Below, in pieces: positions 23,142 through 57,557 of a DNA stretch of 64,000 bases. The translations under genes were made by a program, and so were the position numbers. How positions within the stretch are numbered: position 1 is the stretch's first letter; the number at the start of each line of letters is the position of its first letter. The stretch comes from Octopus sinensis. Its lineage: Eukaryota. The notes under the pieces are model-generated. The model was not told where the DNA came from and ran no database searches. It saw only the letters and a program-made list of their open reading frames with translations. The stretch is from contig NC_043005.1 of NCBI RefSeq assembly GCF_006345805.1, positions 106,454,001-106,518,000 of the forward strand, in the 5' to 3' direction.

Positions 23142-23177
23142 CTTTCTGTAGAAGAGCGTAGGCTCGAAACGTAAAAG
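23142..23177 (+). ncRNA. Minimal type I hammerhead-like motif, variant core CUGUAGA
   Basis: Reads cttt-CTGTAGA-a-GAGC-gtag-GCTC-GAAA-C-GTA-aaag. Stem I is 4 bp, stem II is 4 bp with a tetraloop, stem III is the palindrome ACGT, and the cleavage triplet is GUA. Confidence 0.65.
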
Positions 23178-26100
23178 ACCTTTTCAATTCCTGAGCGTTA
23201 TACTAATACATCTGTTTGTTTTGTACACCACCTGTCATCGTGTTTTGTCAAATTTTCCATGTAAAAATAAAATCAACAAATTTCATAGCTACTCAGAAAG
23301 TTCCTTCAATTAATGTTTCATACATTTTAGCTATGAACTTTTTTTTACTGCATTTGTGCATAAAAATATGTAAATGTATGTGTGTGTATACATGTGTTCA
23401 TATGTATATATATCTAAAGTATATGTATATATATATATATATATATACATATACATGCATACAAACATATCTATATGTCAGACACATGTACGTCTACATA
23501 TATACATATATACATACATATGCATATACGTGTGTAAATGTATAGATATGTCTGTACTATATATATATATATGTATGTATTTATATATTATATATATATG
23601 TATATACATATACATACATATATTATGTAAGTATATATATATATATGTATATACATATACATACATATATATATATATATAAGTATATATACATACACTT
23701 ATATTCAATAATTAATTATATTCACTCAGTGCGATAATACCTCTTCTATTAAGTTTTAATTACTTATTTGTTTTTACCGAAAGGTGAAAAAAAAACAAAA
23801 AACAAAAGCAACAAAAAAAAAACAGGACAAAACAAAACACATTACATAAAGGAAGAATGTAAGTGCACATTACTATAAACATGGCTTCCAGGCAAACAGT
23901 TATGTGATGCGGAAAAGTCACCGTAAGCATTCCTTTCACTTTACATCACTGTACACACATACACACACGAACACAAACACACACACGAGCACACGCACAC
24001 GCATACACACACAAACAAACATACATGTAAACATTCACACACATACAGATATATATATATAAATATATATATATATAAATATATTTATATATATATATAT
24101 ATATTATAATATTATATATAATATATATATATATATATATATAAGATATATATATATATATAATAAAGATATTATATATATATATATATATAAGATATAT
24201 ATATATATATATATATATATATATGCATATGTATGTGTGTGTTGTGAATCTATACACACACACATATATACGTGTGTGTATATATAAATATGTGTGATAC
24301 ACTTTTACAAACACACTCACACATAAACATATGTATATACAAGTATACATACACAGACACACACAGACATACACATACACACAAACATTCACACACACAC
24401 ACACACATGAATATATGTATTTTTCCGATATAGGTTTATGTGCACGGCATGTATGTACTGCAGGCTAAAAAAGGAAAAAAAGTAGATGAGAAAAATAGAA
24501 ATCTTTCGTTTAATGTATCGGCTAATGAATTGTAAGAGACATACTTTTTAGCAAACATCACTAATCAACCAGAAAGTCTATCATAGTCAATTTATTTAAT
24601 TTATCAATAGTAATAAAGTGGAAATATAAGATTCTTGCTGTGAAATATTTAGATATATTTTTCACAGAAATATTTTTGTTTTCATGTCGGGACTTTTAAG
24701 TAAGTTATTCCATACAGTGTATCGGAGGTTAGGAAATAGCTTAGGTGACTACAAGTATATAACCATGTATGTATGTATGTATGTATGTATGTATGTATGT
24801 ATGTATGTATGTATGTATGTATGTATGTATGCATGTATGTATGTATGTATGTATGTATGTAGGTATGGATGCATGTATGTATGTATGTATTTATGTATGT
24901 ATGTGTGTGTGCGTGTGTTCATTAATGTAAGTATGTACTTACATATATATACAGAAATGTATATACATAAATATATATTTTTGTGCAAGAGAGGAACCAA
25001 ATGAAAACAAACCCTCGACGCTGTCCCCCCTCTTTCTCTCACTAATATATATTATATATATATATATATATAATATATATATATATATACACACACAGAG
25101 GGAGAGAAAGAGAGACAGATAGACAGTGGCAGAGAGACAGAAAGAGATAAAAGTATTTGTGTGTATGTATGTGTTATATCACGGTAAGTTTCCGGAACAG
25201 TGCTCCTCTAGAAAAATGGATTTCATTTTCGAATTCTACGTTCAAGGAGGTTTTCGATTATCATTAATCAATATAACTTACTACAAGAAATAACTCAACT
25301 TTCAGATCGTCAAATCTACCTTTCTCTAATGACTTATCCTTCTGCCCATCTTTTACGCTCTTAGCCCTCACTCTATATCTATATATACAAGACCGAGTTT
25401 ATGTGCGTATGTGTGTGTGTGTGTAATTGCTTTCATTTTATTTAAAACTTCGTCGTAATGTTTTTGCTTTCATTTTGTGATATACTGAAACTGCTAGCTT
25501 CCAAATCTTGTTCTGTGATTGGGTAAAAATTATGAAAACTTTGTAACATTTTCCGAAAGTTTTTCTAGAATAAACGAATCATAAAATTGTATTCAGCATA
25601 AAGACATATCAATATATCAAATTTGAAAATTTTCACTTATAAAATTTCAAAATCTGTAAGAGCAGCACAAAAGACCGGTCTCTCTCTCTCTGTCTTTTAC
25701 GCTTTCCTCGCGGTAAAATTTCACCTCTCCTAACCACTTTTCTCTCTCTCTCTATATATATATATATATTACTTACGCTGTGTGTGCGTATGTTTGTACG
25801 TGAGCGTGTATTTGTGTATGTGTGTGTGTTTATGTGCGTCCGTGTCAGTGTATGTGTATGCATGTGTGTAAGGAATTTCATTAGGGTGAGAGAGTTGAGA
25901 GACTTTCACAAAGGATCAGCGGTGAAGTCAGAAGACATCCAAACAGAGAAGGAATAGACCTAATGATATGAGAACACGAGCCTTCGTCGCACGGTCAGAG
26001 AAGAGACCCGTGCACAGGGTGCATTGATTAGATGATAAGTGCACAAGAGCTTTCATCACACAAACTCAGGAAACGATGTTCCATTTCACAGTCAAACGAC

Positions 26101-27109
26101 TTCAATTTCTTATGAGACTTAGTTTTGTCAACAAATCGCAAAACCAATCATTTTCAGATGACGGTTTACACCTTGAAGAGCCTTGCTTCACCCTTCGTCA
26201 GCTTTACGTTGGATGTTCGAGAGTAGGAAGTTACAAAAATCGTTACATCTAGACATCAAATGGAAAAACAACGAAAAAAAAATTGCTTTGCTTATCGAGA
26301 GATTATAAATTGTTCCCAATAATGCCGAAATCCGTCCTGATCAAGAAGCTTCGCTGTCAGAGAAGACATGGTCTAACATAAATATATTGAAATAAAGGTA
26401 ATCTATTGTGAAAATTACCTGGCGACAACGAGATACTTGGCTAGTGTGCGTGTATACATACATATCTATCTATCTATCTATCTATCTATCTATCTATCTA
26501 TCTATCTATCTATCTATCTATCTATCTATCTATCTATCTATCTATCTATATGTCTGTCTGTCTGTCTCTCTGTCTCTCTCTGTCTCTCTCTCTGTCTCTC
26601 TCTCTCTCTCTCTCTCTCTCTCTCTAATATATATATATATATACCTATATATATATATATATATATATATATTATATATATTATATATATATATTATAAT
26701 ATATATATATGATAATATAATGCATATAATATAATATCTGTATATATGTATAATATGTATATATATATATATATATATATATATATATATATATATATAT
26801 ATATATATATATATTATATATATATATATATATATATATATATATATATTCTCCTGAATTGAACTGCAACTGCTAGCCGCCACTGACCATTCAAAATACG
26901 ACCATCAAGGCACTCCCAAATTTTTCGACCCCCTCTCCTCATCAACCTTCTTCTTCTTCTACCCTACCTAGAATTCACAACGGCCTCGAACACACAAGTG
27001 CAAACAATGGAGACAGAGAAAGGCAGAATGCCACTTATATTTGAACACTATACAAATATTCCCTTAAAAAAACTTTTCTTTTAATTTTTCTAAATTTAAT
27101 TATTTAATC

Positions 27110-27153
27110 TTTACAGTTGAAAAGGTCTCAAAATGACCGAAACCGGTACTAAA
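27110..27153 (+). ncRNA. Minimal hammerhead-like motif, U3-A8 variant core UUGAAAA
   Basis: Reads tttacag-TTGAAAA-GGTC-tcaaaat-GACC-GAAA-CCG-GTA-ctaaa. Stem III is the palindrome ACCGGT and stem I is imperfect. It lies in a ~350-bp element flanked by (TA)n on both sides (about 26850-27205). Confidence 0.55.
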
Positions 27154-27291
27154 TGTTCTTTATAAAATTATTTTAGCATTTTCTATTTTGACTTGTTTTT
27201 TCATATATATATATATAATATAATATATATATATATATAATATATATATATATATATATATACCTATATATATATATATTATATACATCAA

Positions 27292-27963
27292 CAGAGTGTC
27301 CAATACAGTGTATAATACGTTAACAGTTGATAACTCACTTAATGTTCCATATTTCTTTCTAAATTTAGCCATTAGAAATAATGAAGGCTGCCAATCTAAG
27401 CATTAAACAAAGGAAATTTATTCTAAAATGCTAATAGAATTTCCAAAACGTTCTCGAAGTGCAAAGACAGTTTAGGAAGGAGTTTCAAACAGATCACGCT
27501 ACGCGAACATCATTGGAATTAGAGATAAGTTTGAAGCAAATGAAACTGTTCAGGGGTTTAGAGTTTTGATCGAAAACATTCCGGAAGACTGCAGGTATGG
27601 ACTTTGTGTACCAGACGAAAAGGGTCATTAGAATATCCTCCGCGTTTACCGGACATCACGCCAAAACAATTGTTAAAGGAGACAAAAGTCAATATTAAGT
27701 TACAAAAACGACAATTGAAGGCAACATTTGAAGGAAAATGCGCACAAATACCGAACGAAATGTTGTTTTTATATTTGCAATCCCAGTGATTTGCGTTATC
27801 ATTTGAGCTTAGACGAGAACGACCATTAATTTGAAAACTGGCGCTCGTAAATAAGTTGAACATTGTCTTTAGATTTTACTAAATTTTGAAATTGAAATAT
27901 ATTTAAATAGGCACTAACTTTATAATCGTTCAATGTGTGTATACATTTTGTTAGGACACTGTG
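27292..27963 (+). mobile_element. Internally deleted Tc1/mariner-superfamily transposon (DUF4817-type HTH)
   Basis: TIR-like ends cagagtgtcc / ggacactgtg. Decayed transposase reads MKAANLSIKQRKFILKC**NFQNVLEVQRQFRKEFQT...IRDKFEANETVQ, then RRKGSLEYPPRLPDITP (compare WPPRSPDLTP). Confidence 0.8.
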
Positions 27964-56537: not shown

Positions 56538-56745
56538 AATCTGTTTCAGTCATTAGACTGCTGCTATGCTGGGACACCGCCTTGAAGAAATTTTTGTTGA
56601 ATGATTCAACTCCAACATCTATTATTTGTTTTTTTACGTCAGAAATTTATTATATCGGATCTTATTTAGCCGAACTGCTAAGTTACAGGGACGTAAGCAA
56701 ACAAACATTGGTTGTCAAGCGGTGGTGGGGACAAACACAGACTCA
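56538..56745 (-). mobile_element. SINE family B tail (head at 57586-57745)
   Basis: The tail and head of one family B copy are separated by (TA)n tracts holding two nested elements. Confidence 0.75.
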
Positions 56746-56825
56746 AGACTCCCCATATATATATATATATATATATATATATATATACACTCATGTATAT
56801 ATATATATATATATATATATATATA

Positions 56826-57100
56826 CATGTTTTTTTCCGTCCTTGTTTTTGTATACATTCGCTGCTTTCTTCCAAGGAAATTAATGCTCTTAGCTTAGTT
56901 TTTACTTGGGGCTGGCCAGATTGGAGCAATCTCAAGTATAATCAGCCGAAATTGCAAAGATAATCTGGTACTTGACTGAGGAAAGAAAACTTCGAATGAC
57001 CTGTCCTTGTTTTCTTTGTATCGTCTATCTGGATGTTTTGTTGTCCCATTTTTGTGTCATCTAACTGTCCGGATGTTTTCCGTTCTACTCTCATTTCGTA
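56826..57100 (+). mobile_element. Family X element inserted in (TA)n
   Basis: Reverse complement of 37158-37400, with (TA)n on both sides. Confidence 0.8.
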
Positions 57101-57183
57101 TTATATATATATATATATATATATATATATAAGAAATATTGAATTTCTAAATCTCTCGTAGAGGCATGTACGGTAGTGGGGCG

Positions 57184-57557
57184 ATAGAATGGTTGTATAC
57201 TGTCAATCTAACAAGAGCGTGACAATAGGGGGTACACCACCGCTGTATAGCCCTAGGAAGCATCGAACGCCTCCTGATGGCTTTGACACATTTTCCCTGT
57301 GTCCTTATATACATATACGAAGGGGAGACAAACACCCCCGGCTGCCGGAATTGCATCAGGATCCTGAAACACGTGTCCTAGATGCAGTTCCGGCAGCCGG
57401 GGGTGTTTGTCTCCCCTTCGTATATGTATATAAGGACACAGGGAAAAATGTGTCAAAGCCATCAGGAGGCGTTCGATGCTTCTAGGGCTATATACAGCCG
57501 GTGGTGTACCCCCTACTGTCACGTTCTTGTTAGATTGACAGTATACAACCATTCTAT
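57184..57557. repeat. Long palindrome P3: ~178-bp arms, 16-bp spacer
   Basis: 57184-57360 matches the reverse complement of 57377-57557 with few differences. Spacer is atcctgaaacacgtgt. Confidence 0.95.

Follow-up and report, generated by a model that had tools for sequence, protein, structure and literature searches.

The window analysed here is a 64,000-nucleotide stretch of the Octopus sinensis genome (assembly GCF_006345805.1, contig NC_043005.1, positions 106,454,001 to 106,518,000 of the forward strand), a piece of AT-rich animal DNA crowded with microsatellites and with repeats resembling short interspersed elements (SINEs). A first-pass annotation of positions 23142 to 57557 had described in it at least five unrelated elements of one hammerhead-ribozyme architecture, and had ascribed them to a radiation of non-autonomous elements mobilised by Penelope-like elements (PLEs). 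We propose, at a probability of roughly three in four, that the motifs named there are the 5′-truncated 3′ ends of several PLE families, and that a further family, denoted F6 and unnoticed by that annotation, carries a predicted non-circularly permuted hammerhead of the kind that likely ends many of the PLEs called Naiads. The family-level evidence is drawn from the copies in the window, one contig alignment, scans of sequence collections and published data. By self-comparison, F6 has three insertions, the most of any family in the window:

37161..37385, minus strand: F6 copy A; predicted opened type-SGC hammerhead at 37309-37237, predicted cut behind 37288; the 3′ end lies in (TA)n
56828..57100, plus strand: F6 copy B (56832-57057 by self-comparison); predicted opened type-SGC hammerhead, between two (TA)n tracts
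41921..42213, no single strand: F6 copies C and D; fold-back (137/144), both arms of which keep GAAA and CUGANGA, without the upstream strands

All four copies contain the core box CUGANGA, with A, G, U and A at position N7, and a GAAA box about 28 nt upstream of it. In copies A and B, the strands of the predicted fold follow one another in the order stem II 5′ strand, bridge, stem III-AUC-stem I, stem II-GAAA-stem III, bridge, stem I-CUGANGA. In copy B, stem II is formed by 56910-15/56942-47, the bridge by 56916-22/56962-68, stem III by 56926-30/56951-55 and stem I by 56932-37/56970-75, with the predicted cut after 56931 (AUC), GAAA at 56948 and CUGANGA at 56976-82. Both copies have every core base, the G10.1-C11.1 pair, a legal NUH triplet and four helices, one of which, the bridge, ties stems I and II together on their free sides (7 bp, 13/14 cells paired).

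Eckert et al. 2023 (PMC10085705) validated two permuted hammerhead types, SGC and CSG, and with them a helix that connects stems I and II at their free sides. F6 resembles these types in its S-G-C order, short stem I-II linker, extra stem I/II helix and full core. In F6, however, CUGANGA and the stem II 5′ strand are separated and the latter stands first, an arrangement assumed impossible in that study, which took CUGANGA and its adjacent strands to be inseparable. The hosts differ as well: that of F6 is an animal transposon, and the main text of PMC10085705 contains no mention of Naiads or octopus. Directly after CUGANGA, where an intact block C would have stem II, F6 can form only 0-1 bp; the upstream strand gives 6 bp. 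Because the intact block C is absent, F6 would be a variant of the type-SGC hammerhead and not a member; that is, its predicted fold corresponds to type SGC in which the chain is opened at the link from A9 to G10.1. This is the one link of the core known to tolerate an extra base, and single-base insertions are known (PMC4209133).

We consider it very unlikely that F6 is instead a plain type-SGC hammerhead, in which stem II would derive from a GGCU located 5 nt past the core and not from the upstream strand. Such a downstream pairing of 4 bp does exist at +5 in copy A, and the same letters recur in copies C and D, but in copy B it amounts to 0 bp. The 6 bp of the upstream strand, moreover, lead directly into the bridge helix, and in the Naiads Obim/Ovul, EuTe and Amil, described below, the bases after the core cannot pair, as judged by eye. 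Classification as a type I, II or III hammerhead was also tried and rejected, since stem I is missing downstream and the core is not followed directly by a stem II; an assignment to ribozymes resembling that of the hepatitis delta virus (HDV) was weighed by eye and dropped.

A descriptor for the opened type SGC, written after the pattern had been seen, finds exactly two sites in the window, namely copies A and B. In shuffled windows it matched in 0/500 cases in its strict form and in 10/500 in a looser one; when both core boxes were held fixed and the rest was shuffled, strict matches numbered 0 and 2 of 200000. The predicted pairs are intact in 47/48 cells, with one double change, in stem I, compared with 10-42% in slid controls.

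Naiads have been described as lacking canonical hammerheads (PMC8557442); their 3′ ends are labelled HHR_core or HHR_half_core in that source, and no fitting fold was found there. Our comparison, made by eye, covers the last 400 nt or so of the 48 Naiad consensus records in the supplement of Craig et al. 2021. The F6 wiring closes 9/48 of these ends, which correspond to about six unrelated sequences with unrelated stem letters: Amil, Aacu (two of whose pairs are mismatched), Anas, 2_Movir, Plae, EuTe, Obim, Ovul and a record, probably Bfor, that precedes Naiad_Mley and in which stem I has only 2 bp and there is a long insert. Across the nine, stem II has 6 bp, stem III 4-13 bp and the bridge 5-15 bp. 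Naiad Esco has the same wiring except for stem II, and type CSG can be recognised, again by eye, in six nematode Naiads (1, 2 and 3_Nbra, Hcon, Hpol and Asuum). In a comparison of F6 with Naiad_Obim, stems I-III keep their pairing although both partners are changed in most pairs. The Naiad 3′ ends are like F6 in having GAAA 25-35 nt upstream of a CUGANGA near the 3′ end, and in their preference for (TA)n, and unlike it in that no tested sequence word is shared. No ORF is attached to any F6 copy, and F6 would thus be tied to the Naiads by architecture alone, i.e., by predicted fold and target.

We think it fairly probable that Naiads carry non-circularly permuted hammerheads, of type CSG in nematodes and of the opened type SGC from ctenophores and cnidarians to crustaceans and cephalopods, with F6 as an abundant TA-inserting family that has an active, monomer-competent example and falls outside the six permutations thought possible. 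Among the papers listed in the literature searches, from which subscription papers were mostly absent, none links Naiads to permuted hammerheads or reports an opening at A9/G10.1; which organisms CSG-1 and CSG-2 come from could matter for the nematode part. Should F6 cut itself, six would no longer be the full number of hammerhead permutations, and non-circular hammerheads, known mostly from metatranscriptome sequences, would be common in animal transposons; F6 itself, as predicted, would be a new variant of a rare permutation. A rewired hammerhead would also explain, if the F6-type fold holds, the reported lack of the usual one in Naiads, and so remove an oddity from which it was argued that ribozymes may merely parasitise PLEs (PMC8557442). 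Finally, the long stem III of F6 predicts activity as a monomer, so that the role of PLE ribozymes could be addressed without the slow dimer reaction.

Among other Naiads, those of bivalves share a conserved, hairpin-rich 3′-end motif in the Craig supplement. At the 3′ ends of Naiad_Ptep and of the Darwinula Naiad, a CUGANGA is flanked by a helix on each side and has GAAA upstream, possibly a third wiring. The bivalve motif resembles a twister ribozyme.

That the F6 fold is real and yet no working ribozyme, i.e., that it serves the reverse transcriptase as a signal, whether structural or protein-binding, or is the relic of a decayed ribozyme, is in our estimate unlikely. In its favor, the chain break falls within the block assumed indivisible, and PLE hammerheads are slow (PMC4209133). 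Both full copies, however, retain the complete set of core bases, with G10.1-C11.1 and a legal NUH triplet, as do, by eye, unrelated Naiad examples, and the center of the C/D fold-back lies 8 nt past the predicted cut.

The elements named in the first-pass annotation, a further copy and a tRNA-like neighbor of one of them, and a fold-back at the end of its range are the following:

23142..23177, plus strand: F1; minimal type I hammerhead-like, core CUGUAGA (A6U), one-mismatch descriptor match
27110..27153, plus strand: F2; decayed motif with a good 3′ half and a degenerate core box, missed by the type I descriptor
36667..37068, no single strand: F3; head-to-head fold-back, arms 190/193 identical, a strict type I hammerhead in each arm
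41207..41399, minus strand: F4 left copy; hammerhead at 41328-41283, with (AAT)n on the 5′ side
41398..41466, plus strand: tRNA-like stretch; A-box/B-box-like words between the two F4 copies, then (AAT)n
41665..41820, plus strand: F4 right copy, not named in that annotation; stem II of 6 bp, core disrupted by deletion of U4 and a change of A9, head-to-head to the left copy
53984..54235, plus strand: F5; type I motif at 54070-54112, with the 3′ end lying in (AAT)n
57184..57557, no single strand: F7; fold-back (173/176) with a central hammerhead-like 3′ half only (57366-57381)

A type I hammerhead descriptor was run across the whole window on both strands, with 40 local dinucleotide shuffles and the reversed window as controls. 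It returned four strict-core matches, at 36934-37014 (+), 36801-36721 (-), 41328-41283 (-) and 54073-54112 (+), plus that at 23142-23177 when one core mismatch was permitted. The shuffles gave a mean of 0.125 strict matches (maximum 1) and 1.0 one-mismatch matches (maximum 4), and the reversed window none of either kind; strict motifs therefore do not occur at the frequency of the shuffled background. An origin as chance look-alikes in AT-rich, repeat-rich DNA could draw on the 39 occurrences of CUGANGA in the window, on the average of one one-mismatch match per shuffle, and on the failure of F2 with the descriptor. Nonetheless, the excess of strict type I matches and the 0/500 strict matches for F6 in shuffles refute it for F3, F4 and F6, and leave it with a negligible probability overall. 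F1 taken alone is a weak case, given the one-mismatch rate. The Rfam hammerhead was absent among the matches listed for the window (150 of 404), and from 41201-41466 at E<=10. Fold z-scores are unremarkable for F1, F2, the right copy of F4, F5 and F6, and reach -3.74 for F3, whose right arm terminates in (TA)n.

When scored on core boxes, stems I and II and NUH triplet, both arms of F3 (36721/36934), the left copy of F4 (41283) and F5 (54070) match strictly and F1 (23142) with its A6U change, while F2 (27110), which is decayed, and the right copy of F4 fail; the claim of five elements of one architecture thus holds for all but 27110. Stem III, described as often palindromic, is so in F1, F2, F4 and the left arm of F3, but not in F5 (54070), nor in the right arm of F3, in which one base has changed. 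F1 is a single copy with a 4-bp stem I, a 4-bp stem II and a 2-bp stem III. F2 has a 3′ half consisting of a 4-bp stem II, GAAA, stem III and UA, one of three short-loop 3′-half matches in the window (shuffle mean 0.31; 1/200 shuffles reach 3); its defects are two changes in the core box, 3 nt ahead of stem II and a stem I off by one. U stands at core position 6 in both F1 (23146-23152) and F2 (27114-27120), by decay or as a common core variant, and a 96% identical direct repeat (21925-22044 / 23246-23365) lies just downstream of F1. The two F3 hammerheads belong to a single fold-back insertion, and the F3 arm is present, whole or in part, in 20/23 sequencing runs listed; among the runs listed as containing it, no RNA run is on record. 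In sum, the motifs of the first-pass annotation are genuine and for the most part decayed; they belong to a known kind and add little by themselves.

Five inverted duplications, with their ends facing outward, lie in the window. That three of the named elements reside in such structures was borne out: besides F3, these are F4 (41222-41820, 143/155 identical, 287-nt spacer) and F5, whose final 47 nt recur inverted on its 5′ side (46/47 identical), the motif itself not being duplicated. The fold-back that closes the annotated range at 57557 is likewise real, but only the hammerhead-like 3′ half of F7 lies there. The inverted arm of F7 starts about 2 nt ahead of the would-be cut, which, together with the position of the F6 C/D center, is a weak hint of the predicted cutting; the F3 and F4 fold-back junctions sit away from the cut. 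(TA)5 or longer is found within 260 nt downstream of the predicted cut in 4/5 independent named insertions, versus 21.6% of random positions (p about 0.009, with the threshold picked after looking), and for every element measured the TA tract is closer downstream than upstream. Only 27110, which enters (TA)n 45 nt past its predicted cut, and 36934 run directly into such a tract; 54070 adjoins (AAT)n, and 23142 touches no repeat. Contact with TA is thus common but not general.

F4 is a dispersed, high-copy family. To 41201-41466 were aligned 28018, 23109, 14594 and 1018 contigs from four runs, the first three of which represent three organisms; the depth is no copy number, and the alignment omitted 41368-41466. 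Stem II of the left copy is reduced to 3 bp, and the majority letters of the family, at 41309 and 41312, restore 6 bp, which identifies the window copy as decayed. Within CUGANGA, only N7 varies at a level of at least 5% (11-15%) in the three runs other than X6. The other variation in the motif is of the CpG type (stem III 12-32%, G12 and C11.1 5-12%), with G10.1 at 2-5% and one loop position in addition. The 3′ ends cluster at 41207 and 41229-41235. In run X6, by guess an RNA run, A>G and T>C changes in 41241-41336 are far commoner than in the other three (41322, 26% versus 0.3-1.6%; 41316, 21% versus 0.1-0.2%; 41305, 23% versus about 1%); with no matched DNA run, this is a hint of A-to-I editing of the F4 repeat on both strands.

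Scanning metagenome contigs with the F4 core-and-stem-II pattern yielded 31 loci from other organisms, which lack a blastn match to the window and are therefore analogues, not members of F4. Stem I, which lies outside the search pattern, has at least 3 bp in 14/20 distinct flank sets of these loci, against 2.6 when shuffled, so that stem I covaries across the motif class in these other organisms. A PLE-like open reading frame (ORF) is present in 11/31 loci, always on the ribozyme strand. One of these ORFs matches RVT_1 (E 2e-6) and GIY-YIG (above cut-off), four more match GIY-YIG weakly, and 8/13 scanned have no domain match. The F4 motif had no matches in viral and genome contigs, and no relatives of F1 or F6 were found in the sequence-collection scans; likewise, the opened-SGC and CSG descriptors found nothing in the 31 loci, nor did the CSG descriptor in the window. 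In five F4-type loci (L004, L005, L007, L012 and L019), stem I pairs straight after GAAACGU, without an unpaired H17.

The link of the named motifs to PLEs is well supported. Their anatomy matches that of the minimal hammerheads of PLEs (Cervera and de la Pena 2014, PMC4209133), with a short stem I, G10.1-C11.1 and a usually palindromic stem III of 1-2 bp in F1, F3, F4 and F5, and a bulged base ahead of stem II in F1, F4 and F5. As in the window, a genome holds many unrelated and heterogeneous families of those motifs; most members stand alone or lie 100-700 bp from another on the opposite strand, and were read as 'probably related to truncated PLEs'. The window differs in having no attached ORF, in the A6U of F1 and in the long, branched stem II of F3. 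Craig et al. 2021 (PMC8557442) reported inverted 5′-truncated PLE copies, tails of 30-40 bp and targeting of (TA)n; in O. vulgaris, 30 Penelope families have been active recently (PMC13282606). Among PLEs of the Hydra clade, the octopus family Hydra-1_Obim shows a preference for (TA)n, and its hammerhead is located at 2403 of 2507, i.e., about 100 nt from the 3′ end, much as in the window motifs (PMC8557442); six window words, one per family, are unmatched in the supplement of that source. The PLE part of the first-pass interpretation is therefore upheld by anatomy, by the 11/31 same-strand ORFs and by the published inverted copies and TA targeting, but the system was already known. A radiation of non-autonomous elements finds no such backing: nothing separates the named families from truncated PLEs, as which most minimal hammerheads of animals have been read (PMC4209133).

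A related possibility, which we regard as tentative and the less probable one, is that certain families consist of dedicated, fixed-length non-autonomous elements that resemble retrozymes or SINEs and that PLE proteins mobilise in trans. Both F4 copies start at one point in (AAT)n behind the tRNA-like stretch, F4 is very abundant, and copies A and B of F6 begin near the same point, B between two (TA)n tracts. F4 may be an RNA polymerase III-driven, hammerhead-bearing element resembling schistosome Sm-alpha, perhaps with a tRNA-like promoter, and retrozymes have been published as non-autonomous PLE derivatives (bioRxiv 10.64898/2026.07.22.740005). However, the tRNA match of 41398-41466 is weak (Rfam 11.2 bits, E 7.1; ARAGORN 0), and F3, F5 and F7 look randomly 5′-truncated. 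Non-LTR (long terminal repeat) retrozymes and SINE-like Sm-alpha elements, which share with the window elements the character of short, non-coding, hammerhead-bearing repeats, occur as tandem units of about 170-400 nt (PMC7229834, PMC6765202); no tandem units holding a hammerhead motif, the hallmark of the former, are present in the window, where the elements are solitary or in fold-backs.

If the motifs are instead truncated PLE ends, as we favor, they could arise as follows. Where AT-rich or microsatellite DNA is nicked, the PLE reverse transcriptase would begin at an internal point of the RNA, close to the 3′ end, would stop early and would often snap back. What it leaves would be pieces of 150-300 nt whose 3′ end lies in (TA)n or (AAT)n and whose 5′ side carries a second copy in inverted orientation. 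Internal priming and AT-rich cutting have been shown for an Anolis PLE (PMC11167929). The usual minimal type I motif of F1-F5 would need a partner to cut. Cleavage by F6 is a prediction: it would occur after AUC, in the monomer, and only once CUGANGA has been transcribed, the competence of the monomer being expected from the 5-bp stem III and the helix tying stems I and II. The ribozyme would then stay on the downstream product and give that RNA a defined 5′ end. Copies A and B reach about 100 nt upstream of the predicted cut, which implies that uncut RNA was inserted too, as reported for Anolis.

Several observations weigh against our interpretation. The Naiad comparison was one by eye; in 32/48 records the part viewed showed neither order or was not parsed, and five F6 words are absent from the Naiad supplement. 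The two full F6 copies show almost no covariation, and the shuffle control, at 267/500, is uninformative. They differ at 4/58 constrained versus 9/24 free motif positions (Fisher p 0.0014), but the paired part is no more conserved than the flanks (7/76 and 5/62 differences), and with flank divergence this low the contrast is no proof of selection. In nested minimum-energy folding, copy A adopts a different fold and copy B keeps only the bridge and stem III (z -1.09). Within F4, no phased compensatory stem change was seen across the aligned contigs. Insertion of the Anolis PLE in vitro needs no hammerhead cutting (PMC11167929), which also makes PLE hammerheads dispensable under those conditions, a point shared with the non-ribozyme explanation of F6. 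Finally, six PLE-like proteins used as queries found no PLE ORF remnant in the window (E<10; best E 0.67), nor did 83 ORFs from the metagenome loci (E<0.05), in agreement with the original statement that no PLE reverse transcriptase or GIY-YIG ORF was recognised; such an absence is expected of truncated copies.

Some minor features were also seen elsewhere in the window. At 52241-52380 there are 2.5 tandem 20-nt units with CTGATGA-like words, followed downstream by more core-like words, for which no fold was found. A possible further decayed type I motif at 4909-4948 combines CUGAUGA and GAAA with a stem of 3 bp and a stem I that nearly matches. Reading frames inspected by eye resemble a mariner transposase remnant at 51564-51899 (-) and the 3′ end of a long interspersed element (LINE) at 9208-9504 (+).

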